Positions 9,895 through 52,989 of a stretch of DNA of 64,000 nucleotides are shown in pieces. The notes beneath the pieces are model-generated. The model was given only the letters and a program-made list of their open reading frames with translations. It searched no databases and was not told the origin of the DNA. Source of the stretch: Vampirovibrionaceae bacterium NZW_1234 (GTDB lineage: Bacteria > Cyanobacteriota > Vampirovibrionia > Vampirovibrionales > JAGQHJ01); NCBI GenBank assembly GCA_041697335.1, contig JBGUGD010000010.1:28883-92882 (forward strand). Reading direction: 5' to 3'. Within the stretch, counting starts at the first letter, position 1, and every line of letters begins with the position of its first letter. The position numbers and the translations under genes are program-made.

Positions 9895-11736
9895 ATGATT
9901 CGAGGGGTATCGACAGGGTATGACAATGAGCAACTTCAACAGGCCTTAGGGGGCCGCTTTCCTCGTGGGACCTTTGTCCCGATGCAAGGGCCCATGGATA
10001 CCGTTGAGATTGGACAATCAGGTCGTCCCAAGCGCAGTTTCAGCTTTATCGGCGCTGCCGTCAACTTTGTGAAAGGCGCGGTGGTCGATACCATTTCCGG
10101 GATGTTCAGCATGAAAGGCCTCTTAACCATGGCCGGATCGGCTGCCTTGATTTGGGCCACCGGCGGCGCGGCATTGATTCCGTTAGCCGCATTGGGGGCC
10201 GGTATGGGAGCGTTCCAGGTTGTGAAGGGATCCTTGAATGCCGCCAGTGCCTTATCCCAAGGGGACGGTGAAGCGGCTGAAAATGCTTTCCGCGGGATTG
10301 GTTCCGGGACTTTCACCGCCGTTGCCAGCTTACTGGGTGCTCGTGCCGCTTATCGTAATGGGGTGGTAAAAACGGGAACCCAGGTCAAGGGTGGTAAAGT
10401 GGAACTGGCCAGCGATGTGGTCAAAGGCGAAGGTTGGTTTGGAGGCTTTAAAGGCACCGTTAAACAGATGTACCGTGATCTCAGTGGCCAGTCCCGAGCC
10501 GTCACTACGAATAAAAGTGGGGCACCCGTATTAGACAATAACAAGAACCTGCTCAATATGGGCTGGGATAGCATGAAGGGCAAGTGGGACAGTCTGACCG
10601 GCACCTTCCAGAAAAACGGATTGCAAGGGGTCAAAGACAATGTCACTCGCATGGTTCGCGGCAAGGATGCGGCTGGAAAAACGAAAGCCAAGCCGGGTGA
10701 ACAGAAGTTATCCAAAGCCGAAGAAAGCTTGCAGCAATCTCGTACGGCCTTACAAGAGAAGCGAGCTCGGGTAGCTGAGCAGGTTCAAAAAGAAACGGCC
10801 GGGAAAAAATCCGGATCGACTACAGAATCGGCAAAAGAGAGCGCAGCCCAGGCTCGCCAAACTGCGGCTCAACGTGCGGTGAAAGAACAGCAACTCAAGG
10901 CGGCTCAGGAACGGGCCAATACGTTAAACCAGAAATACACCGAAGTACGCGGGAAATTGAAGGTTCTTGAATCCAAACGCCAGGCTTTGGCCGAAAATAT
11001 TCGGGCCGCCCAGGTCGAGCGCCAGAACCTGATGGCTCGTCGCAGTGCCGGGGAAAAACTTTCTTCGCAAGATTCTGCCAAGCTCTCTGAATTAAACCGC
11101 TTTGTGGCTGAGAAATCCGGGGAGTTTGCCAAGATGTCCCGTGAGTCGGCCAGTTTGAGTCGTCAACTTTCGGGGGATAAAGCCTCTGGCGGCCAGAAGA
11201 TCGGCATTAACGAAGATCTGCGTCAAGCCCGCCAGACCTTGTCTGAGCGTGAAGCGGCCTTGAAACGGTCTGAGCGTTCACCAATAGAGGTTGAGGTGGA
11301 CAAGCGCCTGGTCAAGGACCTGGAAGCTGTGAAAGCTCAAGAGGCGGCTGTCACGAAAATGCGGCTTGAGATGCGTCGCAAGGATCCGACCACGGTCACC
11401 TTTAAGCGGGAAATGGCTGAACTCAACAAGACACGCCTACCGTTGAAAAAAGAAGTTGCTGAGCTACAAGCCAACATCGATAAACTGAAATACAATCTGG
11501 ATGCCGACTCCCAGTTTGTCCTTCAGCAAATGAACCAGCAATTGGCTCAGCGTCAAGCCCAGTTGTCGGTCTTGAATGAAAATATGGCCTCCATTGTCAA
11601 CAATGCCCGGGCATCCTTTAATCCCAGCATGATGCGCTCAACCCGTTTCTGGCTCAACGGCCAGCTACAAACCGGCGGCATGCAGATCTACTTGACCCGA
11701 GCCAACCAGGCCGGTAATACGGATGATGACATGTAG
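9895..11736 (+). CDS. Hypothetical protein: Gly/Ala-rich hydrophobic hairpin region plus long coiled coil
   Basis: 613-aa ORF. LLTMAGSAALIWATGGAALIPLAALGAGMGAF hydrophobic segment. About 300 aa of K/E/Q/R-rich heptads. Confidence 0.85.
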   Translation: MIRGVSTGYDNEQLQQALGGRFPRGTFVPMQGPMDTVEIGQSGRPKRSFSFIGAAVNFVKGAVVDTISGMFSMKGLLTMAGSAALIWATGGAALIPLAALGAGMGAFQVVKGSLNAASALSQGDGEAAENAFRGIGSGTFTAVASLLGARAAYRNGVVKTGTQVKGGKVELASDVVKGEGWFGGFKGTVKQMYRDLSGQSRAVTTNKSGAPVLDNNKNLLNMGWDSMKGKWDSLTGTFQKNGLQGVKDNVTRMVRGKDAAGKTKAKPGEQKLSKAEESLQQSRTALQEKRARVAEQVQKETAGKKSGSTTESAKESAAQARQTAAQRAVKEQQLKAAQERANTLNQKYTEVRGKLKVLESKRQALAENIRAAQVERQNLMARRSAGEKLSSQDSAKLSELNRFVAEKSGEFAKMSRESASLSRQLSGDKASGGQKIGINEDLRQARQTLSEREAALKRSERSPIEVEVDKRLVKDLEAVKAQEAAVTKMRLEMRRKDPTTVTFKREMAELNKTRLPLKKEVAELQANIDKLKYNLDADSQFVLQQMNQQLAQRQAQLSVLNENMASIVNNARASFNPSMMRSTRFWLNGQLQTGGMQIYLTRANQAGNTDDDM

Positions 11737-20080: not shown

Positions 20081-21349
20081 ATGTTTGGTAATCCTATCAT
20101 CAGTTCATTGTTGCCATCCTCGGGGCTCACTGCATTGCAGGGCTCGCAGATGGGGGCAGCCCGCCCGATGGGTGGGATGATGCCGGGTGCCTCAATGCAG
20201 GTATCTTCCTGGGGCAATGCCTTTGGTTCCCAAAATCAGTCCATGGGAATGCAGCAGAGTTGGATGCAACTGCTTTATGGCCTTGTGATGGTGCAATTGT
20301 TTCAGACATTGTTGCAAAAACCCCAACCCAAGCCATTACCCGAGCCGGAGCCCATCAGTCCAACGTTAATTGAGGATCGTCCGGAGGCCAAGGTGATTGG
20401 GGACATCAATTACCGTAACCTCAATCTGGAAGAACGTCGTAAACTGAGTAATATGTCGGATCGGGAACGGGCCGTGCTTCACTTATGGGGCCGCCAAATG
20501 ATTGCCGAGGGCAAGCAGGACGGTGGTATTCTGCTTACCGTGCTTGAATCGGCCCAGACGGGTCAAAACGATGGAACTGTCTTGACGGAGAATGCGGAAG
20601 TGCTTCTGGCTCAAGAATTGGTGGCCAAGGAGAAAGAACGGTTTGGTGCCGTGACGGGACGCACCCTGGACGAAGAATTTTTTAAACTCTATGAAAAACT
20701 GACGGGCAAGGATATTTCGGCTCGCTATGCCAATGCGCCCTTGCATAAAGCCGATGGCCCCACGCGAATGCCCAAGCAGTTTCGGTTGGATTCGCCGGAA
20801 TGGGAAAGTGCCTTGCAAGAGCAAAGCGGCTTAAACGGCTTTGAGAATTCGGTCCTGCGCCTTTGGGGCCATAATCCCCTGTTTACCGGGAATATTGATG
20901 GCTCTATTCTGGCCTTTACCCTGGCCAATGAAAAGTCATTGGATCCGGGTCTGAACAAAGCGGATGTCAGAAACTTGCTGGAAGCCGATATGGTGGCCGA
21001 TGGCAAATTGAACGGCGATGCTCTTGAAAAGGCCTTTGTGGATGTGATGGACAAAATGTATCTGGGCACCGAAGGGGCTTCTGTGGAAAAGACCAAGCAG
21101 TTTGCCCTGGACAGAGCCCGTGCCTTGAAACGCACGGCCCAGCAGATAAAGCAAAGCACCACGGAAGGCGTTCAGGATGCCATTAAGTCTGTGGGCAAAA
21201 CCATGAAGGATCACCCGGTGCTCACCGGCATCAGCATTTCCGGTTTGCTGACGGCTGCCATTATTTGCCCTTTCCTGGCGGGCTTGGGCATGGGAGGCGC
21301 TGGCGTTGCCATAGCCCAGCGCTTGATTGAAGGTGGCAGAGACGATTAA
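20081..21349 (+). CDS. Hypothetical protein with Gly/Met-rich N-terminus, internally duplicated domain and C-terminal hydrophobic segment
   Basis: 422-aa ORF. Repeat VLHLWG..DGGIL / VLRLWG..DGSIL. Confidence 0.85.
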   Translation: MFGNPIISSLLPSSGLTALQGSQMGAARPMGGMMPGASMQVSSWGNAFGSQNQSMGMQQSWMQLLYGLVMVQLFQTLLQKPQPKPLPEPEPISPTLIEDRPEAKVIGDINYRNLNLEERRKLSNMSDRERAVLHLWGRQMIAEGKQDGGILLTVLESAQTGQNDGTVLTENAEVLLAQELVAKEKERFGAVTGRTLDEEFFKLYEKLTGKDISARYANAPLHKADGPTRMPKQFRLDSPEWESALQEQSGLNGFENSVLRLWGHNPLFTGNIDGSILAFTLANEKSLDPGLNKADVRNLLEADMVADGKLNGDALEKAFVDVMDKMYLGTEGASVEKTKQFALDRARALKRTAQQIKQSTTEGVQDAIKSVGKTMKDHPVLTGISISGLLTAAIICPFLAGLGMGGAGVAIAQRLIEGGRDD

Positions 21350-27494: not shown

Positions 27495-27623
27495 GCTGCC
27501 TTTCGTAGAGATATGCCTGAGCAACATTTGAGGTTGATGGGGTTTTCTCTGTATGTCTCTGTCTCGTAAACCCGTTGCCGTATCGCGTTGGCCTGGAGCT
27601 TTTGTGCTGTGTTTCTGTCCCCC

Positions 27624-28709
27624 ATGTCTCGGATGTATTCGCCCCACCCATCAATGCCACGTTTGATGAAACGAGACTCCCACTCCCGGCGGTTTGGGAG
27701 TGAATCTCAGGCTAAACCTTCAACAGCCCTGGCGATTCCTGAAGCCGTGAAAATTGTACCCAATCCCAGACTCTCCCCAAAGGACGTGTTGGAGCTGTTT
27801 CCCCAAGGGCTAAAAGATCTTGTCTTTCAGCAAGGCACGTTGGAAAACTGTTATTTTTTGGCCTCGGTGGATGCCTTGTCTCGCAATCCCTATGGCAGAA
27901 GACGCCTTATGCAGCTGATTCGTCCCTTGGGGGGCGGCATCTATGACGTCTATTTCCCTGGAAAACCCGGGTCGGTTTATCGCGTTACTCTGGCCGACTT
28001 GGCGATGCCTTGCTTTCGCCAGGCGTCGCTTCGAAATGGAGAGCCCCTTGCATTGATTCGGTTGAAACCGTCACAGGGAGCCCGGGGGGTGCAGATTCTT
28101 GAGCATGCCTTCGGACAAATGCTGTTGGACCTGAAGGGTGACCGATCCCATCCCTGGATCGCTTATCCCGACGGGGCTTCTGCACTGGCGATGTTGGCTT
28201 TGACAGGACATCCCCCTGGTCTTGAGATCAGCACCCGTGTGGCCAAAAATCGTGCATGGGAAGATTCCAACTCCTTCTTGGCGGAATCGCTGACTAAGCC
28301 GGAATTGCTGGATGCCGTGGCGTATGAGTTGAATCAGCTATCAAGACATCCTGCTCGCAACCTGGTAACGGTGGGTACGCCCGCGGAAGAATTGGCCGCC
28401 TTTAATGCGCAGGACGGAACACCCTATGTGGACAAGGTACTTCGCTTTTTGGCAGGCCATGAATTCTCGGTGCGCCATATTGATGCCCAGCGTCGAACCT
28501 TGACCCTGGTTGATCCCCATGATACCGGCCCGACCTTGACGCTGAGCTATGCCGAGTTTTTTCGGTATTTCAACTACTTGCAGGCGACTCCGGTCCCGGA
28601 AGTGTTGTCGGGTGAAGAAGAGCTGCCCATTCCTGCCAGTGATGCCCGTTATGACCCACTTCGCTCGTCGCTGATGGCTGCCATCCGACTGGCTATGCAA
28701 TCAGAATAG
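27624..28709 (+). CDS. Calpain-like (peptidase C2-type) cysteine protease
   Basis: QQGTLENCYFLASVDAL (catalytic Cys), LEHAF, GHEFSV (His), LVDPH at the Asn position. Start uncertain. Confidence 0.75.
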   Translation: MSRMYSPHPSMPRLMKRDSHSRRFGSESQAKPSTALAIPEAVKIVPNPRLSPKDVLELFPQGLKDLVFQQGTLENCYFLASVDALSRNPYGRRRLMQLIRPLGGGIYDVYFPGKPGSVYRVTLADLAMPCFRQASLRNGEPLALIRLKPSQGARGVQILEHAFGQMLLDLKGDRSHPWIAYPDGASALAMLALTGHPPGLEISTRVAKNRAWEDSNSFLAESLTKPELLDAVAYELNQLSRHPARNLVTVGTPAEELAAFNAQDGTPYVDKVLRFLAGHEFSVRHIDAQRRTLTLVDPHDTGPTLTLSYAEFFRYFNYLQATPVPEVLSGEEELPIPASDARYDPLRSSLMAAIRLAMQSE

Positions 28710-28736
28710 TCCTGAAACGTTCTTGATTACTTGAGA

Positions 28737-29375
28737 CTAAAGAGAATCAAAGGTATTGTCCGGGGCGATGGTTGCTTTATATTCCTCGGCATCTTCTTGC
28801 GTTGTTTTCAGGCGATCGATATCCGAACTGGTCAGTTGCCATTCGTTTCGCTTGGTCCTGGGATGCTCCGTGTTCTGTTGTGCTTGGGACTCGCTATTGG
28901 TTGGTTTACTGGGATGATGGCCTGCTGGGATCGGGGCGGCTTCTACTTTTTGCCTGAAACCCTGCAGGCAGTCTTGGACGGCTTTGTATGCCCCTTGGAC
29001 CAGCTCGTCGCTGGAGCCGCCTAAGACGTCCAGGGGCGGCTCGTATTCAATGACAATGCGGACTTGTGTCTGCTCAGGGGAGACGGGATTCAACGTCACA
29101 GCCCCTGCCTGCCGGACATCTGCCTGACGGACCGAATACCAGCTGATGGAATGGTGCCCGCGATCCGGGCGAGGCAGTTCAACAGCCAAATCCCACACCA
29201 TCGGCTTGCCCGTCGGGCCAGTCAGCGTCCAGACCCAGGTGTGGTGTGAGGGATTGTGCTGATGGACCTCCTGGACGTAGGGCATAAAGCTGGGGTAGTT
29301 TGGGAAGTCGGCCCAGACCTGATAGCAGGCCTCCAAAGGGGCGTTGACGGTGATGGTTTGATCAATACGGGCCAT
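28737..29375 (-). CDS. SRPBCC / polyketide cyclase-dehydrase family protein
   Basis: ITVNAPLEACYQVWADFPNYPSFMPYV, ISW, GAV, T.V..IEYEPP. GGAGG RBS before MARID. Confidence 0.88.
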   Translation of the reverse strand: MARIDQTITVNAPLEACYQVWADFPNYPSFMPYVQEVHQHNPSHHTWVWTLTGPTGKPMVWDLAVELPRPDRGHHSISWYSVRQADVRQAGAVTLNPVSPEQTQVRIVIEYEPPLDVLGGSSDELVQGAYKAVQDCLQGFRQKVEAAPIPAGHHPSKPTNSESQAQQNTEHPRTKRNEWQLTSSDIDRLKTTQEDAEEYKATIAPDNTFDSL

Positions 29376-29647
29376 AATTTGGGTTCCTCCTATATCCAAT
29401 GAGGGTTTTATGCATCGTAGCTGAACCGCCGAGGCAGCCTGGGCGAGCAAGCCACTCTGGGGGCATTGTAAATGAGGTTCTTGTCGGTGATATGCCCTGA
29501 AGGGGCAATGTTCTGGATTGTTGCTCGGCTTTGGGCACGGGTGACAAACTCAGCCGCGACAGCATATCCGTTGCCTTGTTCTCGCCGTTCGGTTTCGTTA
29601 AGATAGGGAATAGTTCCACCCCCCTGAGAAAGAAGGATACCGAACCC

Positions 29648-31447
29648 ATGCGCATGTCCACCTTGTTGGCACCCACGTTGCGAGAAAACCCAGCAGAGGC
29701 TGAGGTTGTTAGCCATCAGTTATTGATGCGGGCAGGGTATATTCGGCGTCTGGCCAGTGGGATCTATAATTATCTGCCGTTGATGTGGCGGGTGATGAAG
29801 AAAGTGGAAGAGATTGTTCGCCAAGAGATGGATCGTGCCGGGGCTCAGGAATTGTTGATGCCGATTTTACAGCCCGCTGATATCTGGCAGGATTCTGGGC
29901 GCTGGGAAGTCTATGGGAAAGAGCTGATTCGCTTAAAGGATCGCCATGATCGCGACTGTGTCTTGGGGCCAACCCATGAAGAAGTAATTACCACTATTGC
30001 CAAGAACGAAGTCCACTCCTATCGTCAGTTGCCGGTGAATCTGTATCAGATTCAAAACAAATATCGGGATGAAATTCGCCCGAGATTTGGCTTGTTGCGA
30101 GGCCGGGAGTTTATTATGAAGGATGCTTACAGCTTTCATGCCTCCGATGCCGATTTGGATCGGGAGTACAACGTCATGGCAGAGACCTATAAAAATATCT
30201 TCAAACGCTGTGGTCTGGAGACGCGGATGGTTCGTAGCGATAGCGGCGCCATTGGTGGGGATGTCAGTCATGAATTTATGGTTCTGACCCAAACCCACAG
30301 TGGGGAGTGTGATGTGTATTATTGTAATCAATGCGAATATGCCGCCAATGGCAACCGGGCAGAGTCGATTTTGCCTCCTGCCGACGTCAATGGGGCCAGT
30401 CAGTTTCCAGAAGCCAAGGCCATGGAGACGCCCAACTGCACCACCATTGATGAATTGGCGACCTTCTTAAAGATTGCACCCAGCCTGATCTGTAAGGCCC
30501 TGCTCTACATTAAAGATGAGAAAGAGCCGGTTTTGGCCCTGATTCGGGGTGATCTGGAAGTGGAAGAGGTTAAGCTGCAAAATGCGGCGGGTGCCAACGA
30601 GATTCGCTTGGCTTCGGCTGAAGAAGTCGCACGCTATTCTCAGAGCGAAAAAGGCTATGTGGGTGTTGGGGACTGGACGCTTACCGTGAAAGACGGCAAG
30701 ATTTTCTGGGGGCCGCAAGGTGGCCAAGCTATCTGGACGTTAATGGACAGCAGTTTGGAGGCCTTATCTCACTTTGTGGTCGGTATGAACCGCAAGGATT
30801 ACCATAAAGTGGGCTTTACCTGGCCCAGTTCACCCAGCCTCCAGGGGATGTTTTCTGATCTGCGTTTGGCTCGCGTGGGCGATACGTGTCCCGAGTGCCA
30901 ATCCGGAACCCTGGAAATGACCCGGGGCATTGAAGTGGGAAATATCTTCAAGCTGGGAACCAAGTACTCCCGAAAGATGAATGCAACCTACAGCACCGAA
31001 GACGGCAAGGAAGAGCCCTTTATCATGGGCTGCTATGGCATCGGGATCAGCCGGACTGCTGCGGCCGCTGTGGAGCGCTATCATGATGAGAACGGGATCA
31101 TCTGGCCGATTCCGATTGCCCCCTACCATGTCGTGGTGATTCCCGTGAATACTGGCGATGAGACCCAAATGTCTCTGGCTACCCAGGTCTATGACACGCT
31201 GAAGGCGGCAGGCATTGAGGTGGTGATGGATGATCGCGATGAACGAGCCGGGGTCAAGTTTAAAGACGCCGATTTATTAGGCTTTCCCTTACGCCTGACG
31301 GCGGGTAAGAAGGCCGCTGAAGGAATTCTGGAATTTAAACGGCGTTCTGACGGGTCCATGCAGGACGTTGCGGTGGGTGATGTGTTAGACTTTGTGAAAA
31401 AGCAACTGGCAGAAGGCCAAGTGGAAGCGGTTTTGACCCATGTCTGA
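29648..31447 (+). CDS. proS: Proline--tRNA ligase (bacterial type with editing domain)
   Basis: [55 protein letters not shown]. Confidence 0.98.
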
Positions 31448-41289: not shown

Positions 41290-41847
41290 CTAGACTTTTA
41301 AAAAGGATTTAATGCCTTTAAACATAGCTTGAATCAAGCCGGCATTGGCGAGCGGGTCAATACCACCGGCAATCAAGTGTTGTTGCAAGCGGGTTTCCCA
41401 GTATTGGTAGAGTTCTTCACGAGACACGCCCAACACATCACCAATGGCGCTCAATTGGTTCCAATCCAGCGGCAAGGGCAATGCACCACGCCACATATCC
41501 ACGATTTCAACCCGTTGAGCGCGGGGAAAACGCTTTAAAAGCTGGACATTGCTCAAGTTTGCCTGTTTCTGCTTTTCTTTCAGGAATTGCACACCGTAGT
41601 CAATGACCCGAGGCTCTTCGCTGTGCTTGTATTCCGGGAATGATTCGGGAGCCACGCCCATGACCACCGCAATGCGCTCCAAGGTGGTGGTCCGGGTCGA
41701 AAAGGACACTTCCGAACCGATAAGACTGTAGACGTAGGACAGCGTCACACCAATCATTTCTGCGAAGTCTTTTTTATGCAGGTTGGTTTCTTCCAGAAAC
41801 TGAATGAGGCGCTCACTACTATTTGAAACGGTTTCAGCCGTAACCAT
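41290..41847 (-). CDS. XRE/Cro-type helix-turn-helix regulator
   Basis: LHKKDFAEMIGVTLSYVYSL...TTLERIAVVMGV. Second degenerate HTH in the C-terminal half. Confidence 0.85.
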   Translation of the reverse strand: MVTAETVSNSSERLIQFLEETNLHKKDFAEMIGVTLSYVYSLIGSEVSFSTRTTTLERIAVVMGVAPESFPEYKHSEEPRVIDYGVQFLKEKQKQANLSNVQLLKRFPRAQRVEIVDMWRGALPLPLDWNQLSAIGDVLGVSREELYQYWETRLQQHLIAGGIDPLANAGLIQAMFKGIKSFLKV

Positions 41848-42208
41848 GATTATATTTTCCTCCCCCTGAGTGTTACTGCTATTGCTTGCGTAAACATGTT
41901 TTTACGAGGTCTCACTTTCATGACGTACGTAAAGCAACCTATGACAGGATTCTAACAAAAAAACATGATTTGTATAGAATTTTAGTAAACTTCTTGTGAA
42001 ATTTGAGTCAAACCTCTGCATCAAGGGCGTTTAAAGAGTTCATAATTCGACATATTTTCAATATCATCTTCATCGGCCAAACCCCATGGCGCGGGCGGAT
42101 TGGAGAAACACAAGGCAGGATAGTCCGTTTTTTGCCGGGCGATTCTGCTACAATAAGTCCACGGCCCTTGAGGCCAGGGGTGATTGCAATTTCGGAGGGC
42201 GTTGTCTC

Positions 42209-43003
42209 ATGGTGTCAGATGAATCTGTATTACAACCCATTATGCGCTTTTATTGGGTGCCCTCTTTTATGGCAGAGGGTGTTGATCAAATGGCGCTGGA
42301 TGAGGCCCTGCTCGAGTGGCTTCATCAAACAGAAACGCCGGCGCTGATTGTAAGGACCTATCAATGGGCGCAACCGACCCTTTCGTTGGGGGTTCATCAA
42401 AACGATCGCGACACATTGGCGGCCTATCGCTTTTACAGTGCGGACAAACCGGTGGCTTTGGTCAGACGCCCTACGGGTGGACGGGCTATTTTACATGGGG
42501 CGGATGTCTCCTATGCCATGGTGACCAATGCCCCTGGCATTTTGAGCCTATCGCTGGATGAGAGTTACTGCCTGATGATGACCTGGGTCCGCCAGGCTCT
42601 GGAGTCCGCAGGGGTCCCGCTGGTTACCTCTTGTGAAACGGATACCAAGCAATACCTGCGTTCGGCCTTATGCTTTGACACCAAGACGCCTTCGGATCTG
42701 ACCGCACCGGATGGCACCAAAGTGGCCGGGGCCGCTCAGCTTCGACGCAAATACGGGATTATGCAGCATGGTGCCATTTTTGCCGCACCTTTCGGGGTGT
42801 CTGCCGAGACCGTGGATCAAGCCTTATTTAAGCTTCTGTCGGCACGGGTGCCGAAGCCTTTTGACATTTTAGATCCAAACCGAACCAAGGCGTTGGCTGA
42901 TCAGTGGGCGATGATGAAGGATCGTTATTCAACAGAAACGTCACAAATCGTGATGAGGCTTTCCACCACGGCCGGATCCCACTTTGTGCCGGCTTCCAGC
43001 TGA
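42209..43003 (+). CDS. Lipoate-protein ligase / octanoyltransferase (LipM/LplA-like)
   Basis: MALDEALL, YQW..PTLSLG..Q, VRRPTGGRAILH, CF, KVAGAAQ, QHG. GGAGG RBS before ATG 42209. Confidence 0.92.
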   Translation: MVSDESVLQPIMRFYWVPSFMAEGVDQMALDEALLEWLHQTETPALIVRTYQWAQPTLSLGVHQNDRDTLAAYRFYSADKPVALVRRPTGGRAILHGADVSYAMVTNAPGILSLSLDESYCLMMTWVRQALESAGVPLVTSCETDTKQYLRSALCFDTKTPSDLTAPDGTKVAGAAQLRRKYGIMQHGAIFAAPFGVSAETVDQALFKLLSARVPKPFDILDPNRTKALADQWAMMKDRYSTETSQIVMRLSTTAGSHFVPASS

Positions 43004-44292
43004 AGCACTTTGAGGGCGGCTTCTTGCGATAAGGGGGTATCCCGGTAGGGCCGTGGGTGGGTCAGGGCATGATAGGCGTCGGCCACGGCGATAATCCGGG
43101 CTCCTAACGGAATGCTTCGACCCGAAAGGCCATGGGGGCTATCTTGGCCGTCCCAGCGTTCTTTCTGATAATCGATATACGGGATCACCTCGGCCAGGAA
43201 ATTCATCTTCATCAAAAGACCCACCCCGATGTTGGGCGAGTTTTTCAGGGCTTCACGCTCATCGGTTGTGAGGGCCTCTTCTTTGGTGAGAATTTCCTGC
43301 GGCACATGGATACGGCCCAATGAGCCTAAGAGGCCTGCATAGTAAACCAAATCCACGGTTTTTTCGTTCAGGTTCATGGCTTCGGCCAGTTCTTTGGCAA
43401 TTTTGGCAACCCCTTGGGCATGGCCCATAGTGTAGTCGTTTCTGGCATCAATGGCATAGGACAGGGATTCCACGAAGAACTGCTGATAGCGCCCCAGATC
43501 CGCAATGATCTCTGTCAGTTGCGCGCGTAAGCTCAGCATTTCGTTTACATCGGGTTCTTCATCCTCAAGCAATTGTTTGGTTTGATCCAGAAGCTGTTGC
43601 AGATGAAGGGAAACCACGAAGACTTTGGCAGTGGCTTCGGCCAAATCCACCAGTTCCTGGTTGAAGTCGATGGATTCGTAGGATTCAAACAGCAGCAGAC
43701 CTACATGCTTTGCCCCTTCCTGCATGGGGGCGGCAATCAGGGCCTGAACTTTGTCCTGTTGCAATTCGGGAATGGGTTTCCAGCCATGACTGCCTTCTTC
43801 CAGATACGGGATCATCATGGGGAAACCATCGTCATAGGCTTCGACCAAAAACAGTGATTTATCGGACAGGTCGTACCCAAGGTTCCAGCGTTTCTCGGGA
43901 ATTCCGTGAACGGACGTGCCGGTGAGGCTTAAAAAGTGCTCTTTATGGTCTTTATGAATGGTTTGGAAGATATGACACGCATCAACCTGAAACATTTCAG
44001 CCAGGCTCATGGCCATGGAGTCGTAGAGGACAAAGCCTTCATTGGTGTTAAATCCCAATAAGCTTAAGGTGTTATCTAACGAGTAGATTTGCACCAGCTC
44101 TTCGAGCTGCTTCTGAAGTTTTTCAGGGTTGGTGGTGACGGTCGCATTGATTTTGGAAAGCAAATCGTCCGAGATGAGATGCTCGGTGACGAAGTCGCCC
44201 ATATTTAAAGCAAAGATGGCTTCAAAAGCGTCGTCATTTTCCAGGTTGGGGGGATTAAAGGCTGAATCAGTCACGATCTTGTCTACGCTCAT
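42925..44292 (-). CDS. GAF plus degenerate HD-GYP domain protein
   Basis: GAF-like ALIAAPM..VGLL. DARNDYTMGH, ERWDG, IPLGARIIAVAD, RPYR, AGTKWDP. Confidence 0.88.
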   Translation of the reverse strand: MSVDKIVTDSAFNPPNLENDDAFEAIFALNMGDFVTEHLISDDLLSKINATVTTNPEKLQKQLEELVQIYSLDNTLSLLGFNTNEGFVLYDSMAMSLAEMFQVDACHIFQTIHKDHKEHFLSLTGTSVHGIPEKRWNLGYDLSDKSLFLVEAYDDGFPMMIPYLEEGSHGWKPIPELQQDKVQALIAAPMQEGAKHVGLLLFESYESIDFNQELVDLAEATAKVFVVSLHLQQLLDQTKQLLEDEEPDVNEMLSLRAQLTEIIADLGRYQQFFVESLSYAIDARNDYTMGHAQGVAKIAKELAEAMNLNEKTVDLVYYAGLLGSLGRIHVPQEILTKEEALTTDEREALKNSPNIGVGLLMKMNFLAEVIPYIDYQKERWDGQDSPHGLSGRSIPLGARIIAVADAYHALTHPRPYRDTPLSQEAALKVLQLEAGTKWDPAVVESLITICDVSVE

Positions 44293-44535
44293 GGTTGTCC
44301 TTGACGCAATGTCCTACGTGGTAGGTTTGTCGGCAAAGATGAGGGACTCTTTAGATGTGATTTTATCGTATCGGTCCAAACGCCGGATTTCAAAAGTGTT
44401 TTCGTCCATTTTACAGTTCGACAGGATCCTTTTTCAGAGGCAATTTTTCAGAGGGCTTTGAATTTATTGAAGATATTGCAATCGTATAGAAGTATGCCCC
44501 ACATTTTTCCTCGCGTGATGAAAGGACCCTAAGTT

Positions 44536-45132
44536 ATGCGCCTTACTGGATTTTCCCCTGCTGCTACCCTGCCTCGATTTCAAGGCAAAAGTGTCCGCTC
44601 GCATCAAGTGGAGGGTGAGCGCTCCCAAAATCAGCCAACGGTTGTTGGCCGTGGTAAATTTTCCGATTTAAGAACGCTTCAGGCCAATATCAGTCAAGCC
44701 CTGGGTGATCAACGTGTCTTTTTGACAGAATCCGGTGACAAGGTCTTGGGAATGATTATTGACGACAAGATTCCCCTGAGCACGGTCAGCCGGATTTTAG
44801 GGCCTGATGCCAATGCCGGAATTGCCCGCTTCCAGAGCTTCGAGCGCCATGTGTTGGTGTTGTTGGCTTCGGATAATCGCCAACAGCGAGAATACCAATT
44901 TGCCTATGACCCAGCCAATGACGAGTTAAGGGTCTCCACTCGGACTGGGATTCGTCTTCCACCTCAGGATAAAGATCAGGTGTTGTGGCAACTGGTTGCC
45001 CTCCCGCGCAAAGAAGCACTGACCTATGCCAATTATGAGGCAGGTGAGGATCAGGTCAGCCGCCTGGATAGCAAGTCGAAGATGGGGTACTTTGACAAGA
45101 CGTTGACCAATCGCCTGCCCAAAATGTATTAA
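44536..45132 (+). CDS. Hypothetical protein with PRFQG leader
   Basis: AAGGA RBS. MRLTGFSPAATLPRFQG. Followed by a terminator. Confidence 0.8.
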   Translation: MRLTGFSPAATLPRFQGKSVRSHQVEGERSQNQPTVVGRGKFSDLRTLQANISQALGDQRVFLTESGDKVLGMIIDDKIPLSTVSRILGPDANAGIARFQSFERHVLVLLASDNRQQREYQFAYDPANDELRVSTRTGIRLPPQDKDQVLWQLVALPRKEALTYANYEAGEDQVSRLDSKSKMGYFDKTLTNRLPKMY

Positions 45133-46573: not shown

Positions 46574-48115
46574 TTAATGCTTAAAGCATCGCTCATGGGT
46601 CAAAATCATGGCCAAGCCGTGCTGATCGGCGGCCGAGATGACCTCGGGGTCCTTGATGCTGCCGCCAGGCTGCACAATCACCGAGATGCCGGCCGAGGCT
46701 GCGGCCTCAATATTGTCTGTTGCCGGGAAAAAGCCGTCACTGGCCAGTACTGCCCCTTGGGCATTCTCACCGGCCTGGCGAAGTGCATTCTCCACGCTGG
46801 CAATCCGACTGGTCTGGCCGATACCAAAGCCGATGGTCTGACCATTTTTAACCACCACAATGGCGTTTGAGGTCAGGTGCTTCACGATGGCCCAGGCAAA
46901 GGCTACATCTGAGGGAGTGTGATCCGGCAGGGCGTGTTGGGTGACGGTGGTCAGTTCCGGGGTGTCCCGAGACACCGTGGTTTCCTGCAGGAGAACCCCA
47001 AAATCGTCCAGATCCTTAATCATCCAGGAGGGGCCTTGGGCGTGGGGCTGGGTGATACCCGGCACCTTCAGCACTCGCACATTTTTCTTGCTGCTCAGCA
47101 TGGCCAGGGCTTCCGGGGTAAAATCGGGGGCCATCACGATTTCCACAAAGTGCTGGGTGATATCGGCCACAATGGTTTCGGTCACGGTACGGTTGAAACC
47201 GAAGATCCCGCCAAAGGCACTAATCGGGTCTGCCTGGTAGGCTTTATGATAGGCTTCTTCGATGGATCCGGCAATGGCCACACCGCACGGGTTGTTGTGC
47301 TTGATGATGCAGCAGGCCGGATCCCGGGGAAATTCCCGCAGGATGGTGTAGGCCGCATGGGCGTCCACCAGGTTATTGGCGGACATCTGCTTGCCCTGAA
47401 GCTGCTCGAAGGGCTTGGTCATGGGGCCTGTTCCTTGTTTGTACCAAGAGGCTTGCTGATGCGGATTTTCGCCATACCGTAAATCTTCCAGCTTGCTGAA
47501 GTGGAGGTTCAATTCCGCCGGGGTGACATCACCTTCGGCCCGAAGCAGGTAGGCCGAAATCAAGGCATCATAATGTGACACGGCTTCAAAGGCTTTTCGT
47601 GCCAGCATCTGGCGGAAGGTTACCGAGGTTTTGCCCCCGTTGTTGATGACTTCCTGAAAGACACTGGCGTAAAACGTGGGGTTGGGGATGACGACAGTGC
47701 GACTGTAGTTTTTGGCCGCTGCCCGAATCAGGGCTACGCCACCGATGTCGATGTTTTCAATAATCTGATCGTGAGAAGCGTCGGGCTTTCGAGAGACGGA
47801 CTCAAAGGGATACAGGTTCACAATGACCATATCAAAAGAGGGAATCTGGTAGGTTTCCAGTTGATGGGCATGTTCCGGCGTGCTCTTGGCTAAGATGCCG
47901 CCAAAGACCTTGGGGTGAAGGGTCTTCACGCGTCCATCCAGGATTTCAGGAAAGCCGGTGACGGATTCCACCGTTTCGCAGCTCAGGCCGGCTTTCTGCA
48001 AATGCTGGGCCGTGGAGCCGGTGGCAATAATACGAAGCGGGCTTACGTTCTGGAGGTTCTGGAGAAACTCCACCAAGCCGGTTTTATCGGACACACTGGC
48101 AAGAACCGTAATCAT
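46574..48115 (-). CDS. purH: Bifunctional AICAR transformylase / IMP cyclohydrolase
   Basis: SVSDKTGL, GRVKTLHP, IDIGG, LRYGENPHQ, KHNNPCG, ASDGFFP, QPGGSIKD. Confidence 0.98.
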   Translation of the reverse strand: MITVLASVSDKTGLVEFLQNLQNVSPLRIIATGSTAQHLQKAGLSCETVESVTGFPEILDGRVKTLHPKVFGGILAKSTPEHAHQLETYQIPSFDMVIVNLYPFESVSRKPDASHDQIIENIDIGGVALIRAAAKNYSRTVVIPNPTFYASVFQEVINNGGKTSVTFRQMLARKAFEAVSHYDALISAYLLRAEGDVTPAELNLHFSKLEDLRYGENPHQQASWYKQGTGPMTKPFEQLQGKQMSANNLVDAHAAYTILREFPRDPACCIIKHNNPCGVAIAGSIEEAYHKAYQADPISAFGGIFGFNRTVTETIVADITQHFVEIVMAPDFTPEALAMLSSKKNVRVLKVPGITQPHAQGPSWMIKDLDDFGVLLQETTVSRDTPELTTVTQHALPDHTPSDVAFAWAIVKHLTSNAIVVVKNGQTIGFGIGQTSRIASVENALRQAGENAQGAVLASDGFFPATDNIEAAASAGISVIVQPGGSIKDPEVISAADQHGLAMILTHERCFKH

Positions 48116-48131
48116 AGGTGTCTTCCTTTCT

Positions 48132-49136
48132 TCAGGGGGTCGAATGGGTCACGGTAATACTGTAGGCAGGCAGACGAACCTGGCCACGAGCGTCGGTCAC
48201 TTCGCCCACCACGTGGGCTGGGAAACCTGCCGCCGCAAGATCGTCGGCAACAGCCTGGGCCTGGGATTCATCAACGATTATGGCAAGCCCCATTCCCATA
48301 TTGAAGGTCTTAAACCCTTCTTCCACAGGAAGCCCAAGGGCCAGCATCTTTTCAAACACGGGCAGCAGGGGCAGGGGGTGGGTCAAGTCGAATCCCACAT
48401 CCGGATTCAGGCGAAACAGGTTGCGAAGGCCACCGCCCGTGATATGGGCCAAGCCATGAACGGCTGCGCCATGGCGTTTAAGCACCGAGAGCACCGGGCG
48501 CACATAAATACGGGTGGGCTCCAGCAACAGACGCAGGTCGCTTTCCTCGGTCAACAGTTTTCGGGCCAGAGATAAGCCGTTGCTATGAATACCGCTTGAG
48601 GCCACGCCCACCACCCGTTGGCCCGGGCGAATGGTCGTGCCGGTAATCAGGTTTTCTGGGGAGAGGTCTCCCACGGCAAAGCCCGCCAAATCGTAATGAT
48701 CGCCCTCGTAGACGTTGGGCATTTCGGCGGTCTCGCCGCCCACGAGGAGCATGTCCGCCTGATCACAGCCTGCCGCAATCCCTTCCATCAGGGCAAGGCC
48801 CATCTCGACATTCAGGGTCCCGGTGGCATAATAGTCCAGAAACAGGGTGGGGGTTGCCCCGACGCAAATCAGGTCGTTGGCACACATGGCGACCAGGTCA
48901 ATGCCGATGCCGTGATGCTGGCCAAACTGATGGGCCACTAGGACTTTGGTCCCAACCCCATCGGTCGTCAGGGCAATCCAGCGCGCCTCCGTTAGAGGGT
49001 AGACGGCGGCATAGCCTCCGGCCCCGGCTTTCAGTTTGTCGTGTCCCGGGCGTTTGACCAGGTGCTTGAGTCGAGCCACAAATTGATCGCCGCGCTCGAC
49101 GCTGACGCCTGCAGCTTCGTACGAGGACAGGGTCAT
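48132..49136 (-). CDS. purM: Phosphoribosylformylglycinamidine cyclo-ligase
   Basis: Y..AGV, DGVGTK, GGETAEMP, SSGIHSNG, AHITGGG, TFNMGMG. Confidence 0.98.
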   Translation of the reverse strand: MTLSSYEAAGVSVERGDQFVARLKHLVKRPGHDKLKAGAGGYAAVYPLTEARWIALTTDGVGTKVLVAHQFGQHHGIGIDLVAMCANDLICVGATPTLFLDYYATGTLNVEMGLALMEGIAAGCDQADMLLVGGETAEMPNVYEGDHYDLAGFAVGDLSPENLITGTTIRPGQRVVGVASSGIHSNGLSLARKLLTEESDLRLLLEPTRIYVRPVLSVLKRHGAAVHGLAHITGGGLRNLFRLNPDVGFDLTHPLPLLPVFEKMLALGLPVEEGFKTFNMGMGLAIIVDESQAQAVADDLAAAGFPAHVVGEVTDARGQVRLPAYSITVTHSTP

Positions 49137-49918
49137 ACGGCGCTCCTCTCCGGGGTCCCAGCGGTGCTCAGCGGGGTGTCTGATTGCCCGTTGCGGACAG
49201 CCGAGACCATATTCTGGAAGATCTGGAGGCCCGGGGGCGTGCTTTGACGTTCCTCCGGGGTCATGCTGGTCCAGGCCGGATGTTGGGTCCAGCGCACAAA
49301 GGCTTCCGGGTGCGGCATCAGCCCCAGGACATTGCCACGCTCGTTAATGAGTCCGGCAATCTGCTGATGGGAGCCGTTGACGTCGTCGGTATAGGTGAGG
49401 CCGATGTGGGCCGCAATGGGGGTGTCTTCCGGTACAATCAGGCGGCCTTCGCCATGACGGATGGGGAGCATAAACTCGCTGAGCCCCTTGAAGAACAAGG
49501 TGTCCGGGTTGGCCTGGACGGTCACCCAGCGATTGATAAAGCGCTTTTGCCGATTGTGGGTTAACGTAACCTGTTGGGTTTTGGCATCGCTTCGGGGCAG
49601 AATCCCTAGCTTGACCAGGGCTTGAAAGCCATTGCAGATGCCAATGACCAGCTTGTCTTCAGAGATAAAGGTCTGAAGCAGTTCGCCCAATTGCTGCTGG
49701 AGTTTTAACGCCAGAATCTTGCCGCTGCTCACTTCATCGCCAAAGGAAAACCCTCCGGGCAGGGCGAGGATTTGGGCGTCTGACAGTTGACCGGGATGGG
49801 CAATGAGCTGATTGATGTGCAGGATCTGACACTGGGCGCCGGCCTGGCTTAACGCAAAGGCGGTTTCTTCTTCGCAGTTAATGCCATCGCCGGTGATAAT
49901 CAAGGCGTTTGGGCTCAT
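49133..49918 (-). CDS. purQ: FGAM synthase glutaminase subunit
   Basis: GINCEEE, PGGFSFGD, GICNGFQ, HGEG, GLMPHPE. Confidence 0.96.
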   Translation of the reverse strand: MSPNALIITGDGINCEEETAFALSQAGAQCQILHINQLIAHPGQLSDAQILALPGGFSFGDEVSSGKILALKLQQQLGELLQTFISEDKLVIGICNGFQALVKLGILPRSDAKTQQVTLTHNRQKRFINRWVTVQANPDTLFFKGLSEFMLPIRHGEGRLIVPEDTPIAAHIGLTYTDDVNGSHQQIAGLINERGNVLGLMPHPEAFVRWTQHPAWTSMTPEERQSTPPGLQIFQNMVSAVRNGQSDTPLSTAGTPERSAV

Positions 49919-52900
49919 GCCGGTTCCTCCGTATTGTAGCAGGTGGCTGGGGCCGTCTGCCACGCTTTTCTTAAGGTCGAAACATCGGTTCTGACCACAG
50001 TTTTCTGGTGCTGATGAATGGTAAAGGCTCCATCAGCCGTGACCGTGCCCAGGACCATCAAGGGTATGTCCTGAAACGCCGCTTTGACGGCATCCACATG
50101 CTCGGGGGCCACACTCATTACAAAGCGGCTGGGGGACTCGCTAAAGAGCGCTTCATCCCAGCGCAACTCCGGGGAGTCGTTTAAGATGGGATCCAGCGAA
50201 ATGTCGGCGCCATAGGGGCTGGCCAGAGCACTTTCGGCCAGGGCGATGCCCAAGCCGCCATCGGACAGATCATGGCAGGAACGGATAAGACCCTGTTGGA
50301 TGCACTCGAAGGTTGCCTGGTAAAGTGCTTTTGCCAGGTGTGGCTTGACATGCGGGCAATAGCGAGAGTACCAGCCCTTGACCAGGTAGTACAACGAGCC
50401 ACCCATGTGGACATTGGTTTGCCCCGCCATCAGGATGACATCGCCGGGACGTTTAAAGTCCATGGAGACCGCTTTTTCAATGTCCGGGAGTTTGCCCATG
50501 GCTGAAATCAGGAGGGTGGGCACGATGGACAGGCGATAGGTGCCGTCGTCAAAATCGTTTTTCATGCTGTCTTTGCCCGAGATGAAGGGGGCACCATAGG
50601 TCACCGCGGTTTCGTAAAGCGCCTGGTTGGCCCGAACCAGTTGGGCCAGTTTGAGGCGCCCGTCATAGTTTCGGGGAGAGGCCACCGGGTCGGGCCAGCA
50701 GAAATTGTCCAGTAACACCATCGAGGCCGGATCTGCCCCCACGGCCACGGCATTGCGGATGGCTTCATCCACCGCGTTGGCCGCCATGTGATAGGGATCC
50801 CAGTCGCTAAAGTGGGGGCAAATGCCGTTGGAGACCACCAGGCCTTGGGCCTCACCCAGAATGGGTTGAATGACAGCGGCATCGCTGGGGCCGGTTTGCA
50901 GAGGACCCATCAGGGGCTTGATGACGCTGCGTCCCTGGACTTCGTGATCGTACTGGCGGATAAGGCTTTCCCGGCTGCAGACATTGGGGTGACTGAGCAT
51001 CTTCAGCAGAACCGGGGTGGCCGAACGCGGTGCCCGGGCGTAAATGGTGGGGAGTTTCTGGACTTCCCACACGGCTTCCAACTCCATTTGGGGTAGGCCG
51101 TTGTGGAGAAACGCCAAGTCCAACGAGCCCACCAGGGTGCCATTATACTGGATATCAAAGGTCCCTTGATCATGGAAGTGACCGATGGCGCTGAGTTCCA
51201 CATCGTACTGGGCGGCCAGCTTCAGAAGATCATCAATCCGGTTGGTGCTCAGGGTCATCCGCTCCTGGGATTCGGAAATAACCATTTCATAGGGGGCCAG
51301 GCCCGGATATTTCAGGGGAATTTGCTCTAGGTTCAAGAGGGCTCCGTTGGTTTCCTGAGCCATCTCGCCCACGGATGAGGACAGGCCACCGGCCCCATTG
51401 TCTGTCAGCCCCGTAATCAAGCCCTGATCCCGGGCGGCCATGAGAAAGTCGCTCAGGCGCTTTTGGGTCAAGGGGTCGCCAATTTGAACCGCCGACACCG
51501 GGGAGCCTTCATGCAAGGCCTCTGAGGAGAACGTGGCCCCATGGATGCCGTCTTTGCCGACACGTCCACCGGCCATGACGATGGTATCTCCGGGTTGGGT
51601 GTATTTCTCATAGCCCAAACCCTGAGGCACCTTCAGAGGCAAAAGGCCGCCAGTGCCACAAAAGACCAAGGGCTTCGCCCGGTAGCGTTGGTCAAAGACC
51701 AAGGCACCATTGACCGTGGGGATACCGCTTTTATTGCCGCCATCTTCCACGCCTTTTCGGACCCCTTTGAGAATGGCTTCCGGGGGAAGCATTTTGGGGC
51801 GCTGCACATAGGGCTTTTCCGGGTGGGCAAAACAGAAGACATCGGTATTGAACAGGGGCTTCGCCCCCATGCCGGTCCCGAGGATGTCCCGGTTGACCCC
51901 GACAATGCCGGTCAAGGCTCCACCATAAGGCTCTAGCGCGGAGGGGGAGTTGTGGGTTTCTACTTTGAAGCACACGGCGGTGGTGTCGTTCCACTGGACC
52001 ACCCCGGCGTTGTCCTTAAAGACCGACAGCAAGTCGGGGCGGGTGGGCATCAGTTTTTTCGTGGCCCCGGCAATATAGGTCTTAAACAGGCTGTCAATTT
52101 GGGTCACGCGGGGGTAATCGGGATCTGACGCATCGGTATAGGTGATTTTCGCGGCAAAGATCTTGTGCTTGCAGTGCTCGGACCAGGTTTGGGCAATGAT
52201 TTCCAACTCGACATCGGTGGGCCAGAGGCTCAAGCCCTTGGCCTTGCGGGCCTGTTGTGTACTGGGGGCTTGATAGTATGTCTGGATGACCTTCATCTCA
52301 TCCAGGGTTAATGCCAGATGGCGCTGCTGGCTCAAGGCCAATAGGTCGGCATCGTTGACATCCAAGGGGATGACATCGACAGGGGGAACCTGGGGGGCCA
52401 TCACATGGGGAAAGCCAAACCGGCTTGTCGCATGGGCCTGCCATTGGCTCGCCGGGTAGACCGACAGCCGTTGAACCAAGGGGTTGAATAACTGGTATTG
52501 GGCTTGTTGATAGAGAGCGTCAGGGGAGAAAGACGTTTTTGGCACCAGGTAAACGGTACCGGAGGCGACAGAAATGGCCGGAAGTGCCTGATCTGAGAAC
52601 AGCAATGACAGGCTTTTGCCCACTGTGGTCGCCAGGTTGTCGGTGACCCCCGGCAGGAACTGCTGCTCCATGATCCAGTCGATGGGCTGGGGCCAAGTGC
52701 TGAGGTCCAGCCACTGGGCGGTATCGGCCTGACTGAGATGGTAGGTTTGAACAACCGGATCGATGAGGGCCTGTCGGGCCAGGGTGTCCAGAATGCTGTC
52801 GATGGGGACGGGACTTGAAAACCAATACACCGGATAGCATGGAACCGGACCCACACCGGGCAGGTCCACGGTATCTGCCTGATCGGGGTTCTTCGGGACG

Positions 52901-52989
52901 ACATCCACCCGATAAATCAGGGAAGAGGCCGCCGACGGGGGGTCAGTCAAGGTGTGGGTATCTCGAGAAACGGTCTCAGCATGGGACAT
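49915..52989 (-). CDS. purL: FGAM synthase synthetase subunit with extended (PurS-like) N-terminus
   Basis: WSEHCKH, ETHNSPS, DNGAGG, SESQERM, QYDHEV, SGKDS, HDLSDGG. About 1024 aa from MSHAE. Confidence 0.96.
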   Translation of the reverse strand: MSHAETVSRDTHTLTDPPSAASSLIYRVDVVPKNPDQADTVDLPGVGPVPCYPVYWFSSPVPIDSILDTLARQALIDPVVQTYHLSQADTAQWLDLSTWPQPIDWIMEQQFLPGVTDNLATTVGKSLSLLFSDQALPAISVASGTVYLVPKTSFSPDALYQQAQYQLFNPLVQRLSVYPASQWQAHATSRFGFPHVMAPQVPPVDVIPLDVNDADLLALSQQRHLALTLDEMKVIQTYYQAPSTQQARKAKGLSLWPTDVELEIIAQTWSEHCKHKIFAAKITYTDASDPDYPRVTQIDSLFKTYIAGATKKLMPTRPDLLSVFKDNAGVVQWNDTTAVCFKVETHNSPSALEPYGGALTGIVGVNRDILGTGMGAKPLFNTDVFCFAHPEKPYVQRPKMLPPEAILKGVRKGVEDGGNKSGIPTVNGALVFDQRYRAKPLVFCGTGGLLPLKVPQGLGYEKYTQPGDTIVMAGGRVGKDGIHGATFSSEALHEGSPVSAVQIGDPLTQKRLSDFLMAARDQGLITGLTDNGAGGLSSSVGEMAQETNGALLNLEQIPLKYPGLAPYEMVISESQERMTLSTNRIDDLLKLAAQYDVELSAIGHFHDQGTFDIQYNGTLVGSLDLAFLHNGLPQMELEAVWEVQKLPTIYARAPRSATPVLLKMLSHPNVCSRESLIRQYDHEVQGRSVIKPLMGPLQTGPSDAAVIQPILGEAQGLVVSNGICPHFSDWDPYHMAANAVDEAIRNAVAVGADPASMVLLDNFCWPDPVASPRNYDGRLKLAQLVRANQALYETAVTYGAPFISGKDSMKNDFDDGTYRLSIVPTLLISAMGKLPDIEKAVSMDFKRPGDVILMAGQTNVHMGGSLYYLVKGWYSRYCPHVKPHLAKALYQATFECIQQGLIRSCHDLSDGGLGIALAESALASPYGADISLDPILNDSPELRWDEALFSESPSRFVMSVAPEHVDAVKAAFQDIPLMVLGTVTADGAFTIHQHQKTVVRTDVSTLRKAWQTAPATCYNTEEPA

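Follow-up and report, generated by a model that had tools for sequence, protein, structure and literature searches.

The window analyzed here is a 64,000-nucleotide (nt) stretch of the genome of Vampirovibrionaceae bacterium NZW_1234 (G000:C20:28883-92882, where G000 is the genome; 3.70 Mb, 50.4% GC, 94.75% complete). Five open reading frames (ORFs) of the window begin with a short leader that ends in an Arg-Phe (RF) motif. The same leader is found across the genome, on orphans and grafted onto duplicated enzymes, and part of the set shares an upstream DNA element. The genome also encodes a second flagellar-type export machine, and leader and machine are partially co-distributed across the class Vampirovibrionia. 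We propose that the leader may be an export tag for this machine.

A sequence-only reading of the window had named the five ORFs, and each was found in place with its RF motif, at residue 23, 37, 19, 35 and 14 of ORFs 27624, 33390, 37402, 41152 (minus strand) and 44536, respectively, preceded by 0–2 acidic residues. Four of the leaders are rich in Ser, Thr, Pro and Arg as described (combined fraction 0.44–0.55), whereas that of ORF 37402 reaches only 0.28. The 613-residue protein at 9895..11736 (plus strand), put forward as a weaker member, does not belong to the set: its motif reads RFPR, its leader is not S/T/P/R-rich (0.15), it is missed by the leader rule defined below and its upstream element scores 3.3.

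ORF 27624 (27624..28709, plus strand) encodes a 361-residue protein with RFGS at 27690-27701 and a calpain-like Cys-protease domain (Pfam Peptidase_C2, E 8e-4, below the cut-off; QGTLENCYFL motif present). It has no PDB sequence match and six paralogues in the genome, three of them called as leader genes. One of the two strong copies of the upstream element in the window (GCAA-N9-TTGA-N-TTT) lies at 27509..27564 (plus strand), 115 nt before its ATG, with a position weight matrix (PWM) score of 24.7. The other, near consensus (PWM 34.7), lies at 41177..41232 on the minus strand, 80 nt before the ATG of ORF 41152 (39995..41152, minus strand). This 385-residue protein has RFAS at 41039-41050, and its C-terminal 221 residues are predicted to adopt the HopA1/LxmY/phosphothreonine-lyase fold. 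Element scores of the remaining ORFs are below 5. ORF 37402 (37402..39984, plus strand) encodes an 860-residue protein with sigma70-like repeats (TIGR02937, E 6e-5; Atlas features 0.95, clustering with 10–33% Sigma70 members), with no relative among 7,999 scored candidates. Its leader is weaker (RFRG at 37456-37467), and its GTG start is putative, as the element score of 2.7 gives it no independent support. ORF 33390 (33390..34268, plus strand, 292 residues, RFGV at 33498-33509, element score 1.1) and ORF 44536 (44536..45132, plus strand, 198 residues, RFQG at 44575-44586, element score 4.6, a partial match) belong to no known family, and neither has a paralogue in the genome or a Pfam/NCBIfam match. 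The label of orphan does not suit ORF 41152, which has two paralogues and 219 relatives at E<=0.001. Among the cargo identities first suggested, the Cys protease and the sigma-like protein correspond to weak matches, and the HopA1-like domain agrees with the predicted fold.

The leader is a protein motif on about 9% of genes

Genes were called with a hexamer model and starts were picked blind to the motif, giving 2,768 genes. A leader was defined as RF[GAS] or RFxG with the Phe within 75 residues, at most 10% acidic residues and no hydrophobic run. The rule called 297 genes. Applied to internal protein segments it gave 155 matches in 8,601, so approximately 50 of the 297 calls are false, among them ObgE (read from an upstream ATG), FliW (with a native TRFG), agmatinase, cytochrome b and LptA. 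True leader genes therefore number about 250, or about 9% of genes. The consensus is S-[PVL]-R-F-[GSA]-[GSA], forming the end of an acid-poor, S/T/P/R-rich stretch, with the Phe at residues 6–49 (5th–95th percentile).

RFG is the most enriched N-terminal 3-mer, followed by PRF, VRF, LRF and RFS. It was observed 149 times in residues 8–60 of the 2,768 genes, where 30.4 were expected from the rest of the proteins and 21.2 from shuffles (log10 P -53). In the coding frame, RF[GAS] occurs 293 times N-terminally and 87 times internally (3.4-fold), while the other two frames (160/158 versus 151/154) and the other strand (140 versus 146) are flat. A stricter rule matched 234 of 2,768 gene starts and 175 of 15,737 internal Met residues. 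Since the excess is confined to the coding frame and all synonymous codons are used, the leader is a protein motif. The comparison with shuffled controls, one on which the sequence-only reading had staked its claim, came out strongly N-terminal. False calls such as ObgE, FliW and agmatinase might suggest that the excess stems from how starts were chosen, from composition or from repeated DNA. This is already refuted by the internal-Met control and the frame test; synonymous variation, the independent upstream element and the cross-lineage conservation described below also speak against it, and we give it next to no weight.

Leader genes mostly stand alone (45 of 297 lie inside operons, versus 674 of 2,471 others) and are mildly clustered (51 adjacent pairs, 31.8 expected). 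A Sec-type N-terminal hydrophobic segment is present in 10 of 297, versus 417 of the 2,471 others, a comparison coloured by the calling rule, which itself bars hydrophobic leaders before the motif. In its sequence features the leader resembles the substrate signal of type III secretion systems (T3SS), being N-terminal, Sec-independent, disordered and acid-poor. A second motif, DxVxLS, is not enriched (8 of 297 leaders versus 51 of 2,471). The motif runs straight into a β-strand-like segment in 37 of 127 short leaders and 17 of 170 long ones. Four adjoining small orphans at G000:C37:61025-63975 (L015:11025-13975) have very short leaders of this directly joined kind.

Orphans and duplicated enzymes carry the leader

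A Pfam scan covered 189 of the 297 leader genes. The motif is commoner on genes that lack a Pfam match, as had been proposed from the window: 104 of the 189 had none, compared to 32 of 120 non-leader genes drawn at random from the same regions (p 1e-6). The 85 matched calls comprise false calls and many normally cytosolic proteins. They include proteases (FtsH-, Lon-, ClpB- and ClpP-like, an M16 peptidase, and trypsin-, calpain- and C39-like), hydrolases (lipases, two GH13 glucan enzymes, NUDIX, Ppx), tricarboxylic acid (TCA) cycle and central enzymes (citrate synthase, ICD, MDH, GDH) and nucleotide or NAD enzymes (PurA, phosphoribosyl pyrophosphate (PRPP) synthase, guanylate kinase, adenosine deaminase, NAD synthase), together with RtcB (with PrfH), a PrkA-SpoVR-YeaH-ClpP cluster and three sigma-like proteins. 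Catalytic motifs are present in 11 of 13 leader proteins checked.

A leaderless paralogue covering at least 60% of the length exists for 48 of the 297 leader genes. The motif lies ahead of the part aligned with this twin in 43 of the 48, and the leader copy is N-terminally longer by at least 10 residues in 35 of 48, versus 65 of 193 controls. Extra copies that bear the leader, with the leaderless twin kept, are found for PurA (51.5% identity between twins), GDH (49%), MDH (41.5%), citrate synthase (55%), ClpP, FtsH and PRPP synthase. The leader of PurA directly abuts the mature N-terminus, and the leader-bearing PurA is missing from the four other genomes of the family.

At G000:C5:195806-205961 (L012:5806-15961), PrkA, SpoVR, YeaH, a second PrkA and a ClpP-like protein stand in a row, all leader-bearing. 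The leader-bearing sigma70-like proteins (RpoD-like, region-4 repeats) are encoded at G000:C2:10943-13102, at C8:33258-36494 and at 37402-39984 of the window. If exported, they could act on the bacterial-type RNA polymerase of a prey cell or plastid.

Part of the set shares an upstream element

A promoter-like element, cTAGCAA-N9-TTGAgg-N3/4-TTTAt, lies upstream of leader genes, mostly 60–120 nt before the ATG. At a score of at least 13 it precedes 55 of 297 leader genes and 54 of 2,450 others, and it was recovered in held-out halves (22 of 148 versus 13 of 500; 20 of 149 versus 10 of 500). Many of the matches outside the set carry variant motifs (KFG, HFG, QFG, SFSG) or Y/P/Q-rich N-termini. 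That leader genes share this element ahead of their starts supports starts upstream of the motif; the concern that the true starts might fall downstream of it is not borne out. The Y/P/Q-rich N-termini, which share the element and have no RF motif (G000:C2:129963, C14:7905, C8:150349, C25:67248 and others), may represent a further kind of signal within this regulon. An exact-pattern search for the element across the class was not used, as it matched all 61 genomes, including those of the family labelled f5 below, and its reversed-pattern control was invalid.

The genome encodes a second flagellar-type export machine

A type IV secretion system (T4SS), one of the routes first considered, finds no machinery in the genome as assembled: there is no VirB4, VirD4 or VipB family match (search controls were positive), nor is there a type VI secretion system (T6SS) or an injectisome. 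FlhA, FlhB, FliP, FliR, FliI, FliF, FliE, FlgB, FlgC and FlgF/G are instead present in duplicate. System 1 is a normal flagellum with L and P rings, hook, three flagellins and FliG/M/N. System 2, on C32, C8, C29 and C30, comprises FlhA/B, FliOPQR, FliI/H/J, FliF, FliE, an SctQ-like ring and the rod proteins FlgBCFG, together with a 280-residue hook-like protein, a leader-bearing lytic transglycosylase and a FliA-like sigma factor behind flhB2. Two FliA-like sigma factors are encoded in the genome, at C29:179872 and C16:18950. It thus has the parts of a flagellar-type T3SS export apparatus (FlhA, FlhB, FliP/Q/R, FliI/H/J, FliF and C-ring). No second FlgH, FlgI, FlgA, FlgD, FliK, FliG or FliM was found (tblastn: single copies), and without its own L/P rings, FlgD and FliG/FliM, system 2 does not make up a motile flagellum. 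In the FliG slot (L009:14371-15528, on G000:C32) stands a 385-residue Melainabacteria-specific protein with no FliG match and a weak Atlas FliG_M lead. Two MotAB pairs lie at G000:C4:11627-13225 and C10:135698-137695. The two secretins of the genome sit in Tad and type II secretion system/type IV pilus (T2SS/T4P)-type clusters.

FlhA of system 2 (FlhA2) forms one class-specific clade on a long stem (SH-aLRT 100, stem 0.98) within flagellar FlhA and apart from SctV in a quick tree of 92 rows. It scores 678 bits with TIGR01398 and 586 bits with hrcV, both under the cut-off, and shares 62–67% identity with records named Gastranaerophilales or Melainabacteria and at most ~40% with most other bacteria.

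Both FliD caps, a FlgJ-like protein and the system-2 transglycosylase start with xFGG or RFS (G000:C5:100662, C5:141547, C23:124969, C32:18041). These words of flagellar substrates are a possible origin of the leader motif.

Leader and machine in other Vampirovibrionia

Families are denoted by anonymous labels f1–f11, where f1 is the family of G000 and f7 is taken as Gastranaerophilales, since its genome G144 nests among records of that name in the FlhA tree. Among 150 genomes of the class, FlhA is absent only from f5 (0 of 33), f10 (0 of 2) and one f6 genome. It is present in f7 (35 of 35), f8 (8 of 8) and f9 (11 of 11), and flagellin is found in none of these 54 genomes (0/35, 0/8 and 0/11) and an L ring in 0 of 18. 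Because these families keep FlhA with neither flagellin nor L ring, system 2 does not serve swimming. A FliA-like sigma factor tracks the same pattern (50 of 50 versus 0 of 10). Most f7 genomes have two FlhA matches and no flagellin; one match per genome entered the tree, and a third FlhA type in f7 is possible.

The leader is in excess in the same-family genome G146 (9 of 105 versus 7 of 586). Other family members were thinly sampled (G151, 1 of 21 ORFs; G152, 0 of 27), the one gene in G151 carrying motif and upstream element. No excess was seen in 321 ORFs of one f5 genome. We also counted by hand a variant leader, M-[KQR]-I...[NS]-F-x-[GA], searched as a DNA pattern; kin among these genomes are not independent. 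It lies in frame in 31 of 64 matches in eleven f7 genomes (p 0.009) and in 24 of 66 matches in fourteen f5/f10 genomes lacking FlhA (p 0.34). Of 18 leader-like f7 matches picked by eye, 17 were fetched, and all 17 open into ORFs of 80–333 residues, 15 with no upstream in-frame Met and none with a homologue in G000; of three f5 control matches, two were non-genes and one an internal Met. The leaders of these gut Gastranaerophilales are N/S/Q-rich and 10–18 residues long. Although these genes were chosen by protein pattern alone, the element matrix trained on G000 ranks their 17 upstream regions above 210 controls (p 4e-6), and GCAAAAAA occurs in 7 of 17 versus 7 of 210. Leader and element are thus jointly conserved between f1 and f7, though unseen in some system-2 lineages.

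A leader protein with a predicted effector-type fold

The C-terminal domain of ORF 41152 was predicted by AlphaFold2 with a mean confidence score (pLDDT) of 95.9. The model most resembles LxmY (180 residues aligned, root mean square deviation (rmsd) 3.5, Z 11.9) and HopA1 (4rsw; 176 residues, rmsd 3.6, Z 11.7), with Z-scores above those of unrelated rows. Lanthipeptide lyases and SpvC (135 residues, rmsd 3.7, Z 6.8) follow, and Foldseek was concordant. ORF 41152 is therefore predicted to share the HopA1/LxmY/phosphothreonine-lyase fold. The family alignment has conserved W, R, K and D columns, and a catalytic role as a lyase is putative. Pfam HopA1 matches none of 70 members of the domain family. 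The domain is present in 12 of 151 class genomes and in 0 of 33 f5 genomes, and several of its AT-rich relatives begin, by eye, with x-F-x-G leaders. The HopA1/LxmY-like domain (39998-40660 of the window) also occurs inside proteins of 3,000–5,600 residues in the manner of polymorphic-toxin domains (P0022, P0034, P0087, P0102, P0135, P0140).

Comparison with known systems

Chlamydia exports glycogen enzymes by N-terminal type III signals (PMC4829429). These signals, like the leader, do not depend on Sec and extend metabolic enzymes at the N-terminus by ~20 or more residues that are rich in S/T/P and poor in acidic residues. In Chlamydia the tagged enzymes are sole copies, whereas the leader cargo here is often duplicate. 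G000 likewise encodes a flagellum-related export gate. Injectisome signals are not known to have a sharp consensus, whereas here a fixed motif marks ~9% of genes. The gate is moreover flagellar in type rather than SctV, and no secretin, needle or class I chaperone was found (the chaperone control also gave no match).

The flagellar gate-recognition motif (GRM; FLTLL in FlgD) lies at least 19 residues from the N-terminal signal and at least 30 residues in (PMC8983047). Like the leader motif, it is short, begins with Phe and lies near the N-terminus of proteins exported through an FlhA/FlhB gate. The leader does not qualify as a GRM: in 119 of 297 leaders no more than 19 residues separate its Phe from the first Met, and the F+4 position is hydrophobic in only 29% (background 38%). 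FlgB, FlgC and FliE are used as markers that set the flagellum apart from non-flagellar T3SS (NF-T3SS; PMC3459982). Like NF-T3SS, system 2 is an export apparatus exapted from the flagellum with no filament, and like the secretin-less systems of Myxococcales it has no linked secretin. System 2 differs from NF-T3SS in keeping FlgB, FlgC and FliE and in having FlhA2 inside flagellar FlhA. Outside the SctV clade, with no linked SctC and with those three proteins present, it is not an injectisome, and by its gene content and FlhA placement appears to be an independent derivation from the flagellum.

RxLR and the Plasmodium export element (PEXEL) are short N-terminal motifs of eukaryotic pathogens, each shared by hundreds of otherwise unrelated cargo proteins. 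The leader differs in having no preceding signal peptide, another consensus and a bacterium as carrier, and the likeness to RxLR drawn at first did not hold up (3 of 297 leaders, 4.2 in shuffles). Tat signals (S/T-R-R-x-F with hydrophobic core) were found in 0 of 297 leaders, which have no core, and the protein phosphatase 1 (PP1) RVxF, mitochondrial R-3, RxLR and GRM patterns are not enriched.

For Vampirovibrio chlorellavorus, the attack model has a plasmid T4SS as weapon (PMC4451040), and the partial flagellar set of Gastranaerophilales, with two flhA listed, was read as reduction (PMC3787301, PMC5877343). G000 departs from the former in having no VirB4/VirD4 match, and from the latter in that the partial set is here an intact, separately evolving second machine. 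We found no account of such a leader or second export system in this class in searches of the openly accessible literature. The leader is real, genome-scale and apparently undescribed.

A proposed export code and its alternatives

We propose, with a probability of about 0.55, that the leader acts as an export tag for system 2, independent of Sec and recognized within the cell that makes it. The sequence-only reading had suggested a shared secretion, chaperone-binding or cleavage signal; among these, an export signal is the best reading and now has a candidate machine, while export itself is predicted. Upon contact with a prey or host cell, leader genes would be switched on by a system-2-linked sigma factor; their products would be bound at the motif by a receptor or chaperone and exported by system 2. 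The cargo would then digest and rewire a compartment with bacterial-type biochemistry, a prey bacterium, algal plastid or mitochondrion, through ATP-dependent and other proteases, lipases, glucan hydrolases, nucleotide and TCA enzymes, sigma-like proteins and the phospho-Ser/Thr lyase fold. A motif only 3–10 residues away from a Met favours a receptor in the producing cell over a transit peptide for the host. As target, the bacterial-type kit suggests a prey bacterium, a plastid or a mitochondrion, and one cargo protein (ORF 41152) has a predicted T3SS-effector fold. More tentatively, we consider it possible that Vampirovibrionia made a duplicated flagellar base into a delivery machine, independently of the injectisome, with a readable export code on ~9% of genes, a second set of proteases, of TCA, purine and NAD enzymes and of sigma-like factors among them, whose products would be injected to take over a prey bacterium or plastid from within, and that gut Gastranaerophilales use the code for another partner cell.

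Several observations weigh against export through system 2. No receptor for the leader was found, and no CesT match was obtained (the CesT control also matched nowhere), with one YbjN match at E 0.036, below the cut-off. System 2 has neither a linked secretin nor its own L/P ring, leaving passage of the outer membrane as a gap, and its structural operons do not carry the upstream element. With the genome 94.75% complete, a plasmid T4SS could be missing. No leaderless twin exists for NAD synthase (which a NAMPT-type enzyme of the genome may bypass), GlpD, PrkA/YeaH/SpoVR, both GH13 enzymes or Lon, and classical domains for targeting eukaryotes (ankyrin, F-box, U-box and leucine-rich repeat) are absent among the 189 scanned leader genes. 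In seven other system-2 genomes, random samples of 95–115 ORFs each gave RF in 3 of 727 versus 29 of 3,021, with looser motifs flat, though samples of ~100 ORFs are too small to detect the rarer f7 variant. The variant leader shows no excess in five f8/f9 genomes (3 of 18 in frame).

The sole copies among the cargo and the lack of excess in several system-2 genomes would also be expected if nothing were exported and the leader were an N-terminal degradation or intracellular-sorting tag of a stage-specific regulon (attack, dormancy or cyst), by which duplicates are cleared or clustered via an adaptor. The shared element means co-regulation, and the cargo includes PrkA-YeaH-SpoVR as well as additional copies of Clp, Lon and FtsH. 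Yet lipases, glucan hydrolases, trypsin-, calpain- and C39-like proteases and an effector-type lyase fold fit better outside the cell, and f7, which bears FlhA, has variant leaders where f5/f10 do not, so we regard such a tag as unlikely. A shade less likely is export by another route, either the motile flagellum (system 1) or one of the secretin systems (T2SS/T4P or Tad). Known flagellar substrates do start alike (both FliD with xFGG, FlgJ-like with RFS), and two secretins are present where system 2 lacks an outer-membrane ring; f7, however, has leaders with no flagellin or L ring, and T2SS and Tad substrates need the Sec/Tat signals that leaders lack.

System 2 might instead be a feeding-tube- or nanotube-like channel into a sibling, offspring or partner compartment, to which the leader supplies a second bacterial proteome. 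The missing outer-membrane ring, the keeping of system 2 in gut lineages not known to prey, and the bacterial-type kit (sigma-like proteins, TCA, purine and NAD enzymes, Clp/Lon/FtsH, RtcB with PrfH) would suit this, but many cargo are hydrolases or divergent orphans, the lyase domain of ORF 41152 also occurs in giant multi-domain proteins, and we know of no cell-biological evidence for such a compartment; we consider it improbable. That the main role of the leader is as an organelle transit peptide, read by the plastid or mitochondrial import of the prey, is very improbable. Its composition is S/T/P/R-rich and acid-poor, as the sequence-only reading had remarked, and many cargo types have organellar counterparts. 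Against this, 97 of 297 leaders have a Met no more than 10 residues from the Phe, many fall short of the 25–30 residues or more of a transit peptide, the mitochondrial pattern R-x-[FYL]-[SA] is not enriched (16 versus 21.7 in shuffles), and the Gastranaerophilales versions are N/S/Q-rich and of 10–18 residues. Such proteins would in any case still need an export signal.

Export of leader proteins by system 2 would bear on how Vampirovibrio-type predators kill and empty their prey, for which the published model invokes a plasmid T4SS, absent from this genome. The sharp motif would make the secretome of an uncultured class readable from its genes, and the type III export field would gain a substrate signal with a real consensus and an independent flagellum-to-secretion transition. 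The "decaying flagellum" of human-gut Gastranaerophilales would then be seen as a working machine for cell contact that has a cargo list of its own.

Further observations

DNA near-identical to the window was found in hot-spring and microbial-mat sequencing runs, possibly from few independent samples. No RNA runs are listed among them, and the contigs hold no usable variation within leaders. Elsewhere in the window, the ORFs at 17078-18721, 20135-21349 and 35563-35793 are low-complexity orphans, Gly/Ser/Met/Gln-rich and with no Pfam match. From reading the translations, 46574-59765 is an ordinary purine-biosynthesis cluster (purH, M, Q, L, N, D, C, F and guaA-like).

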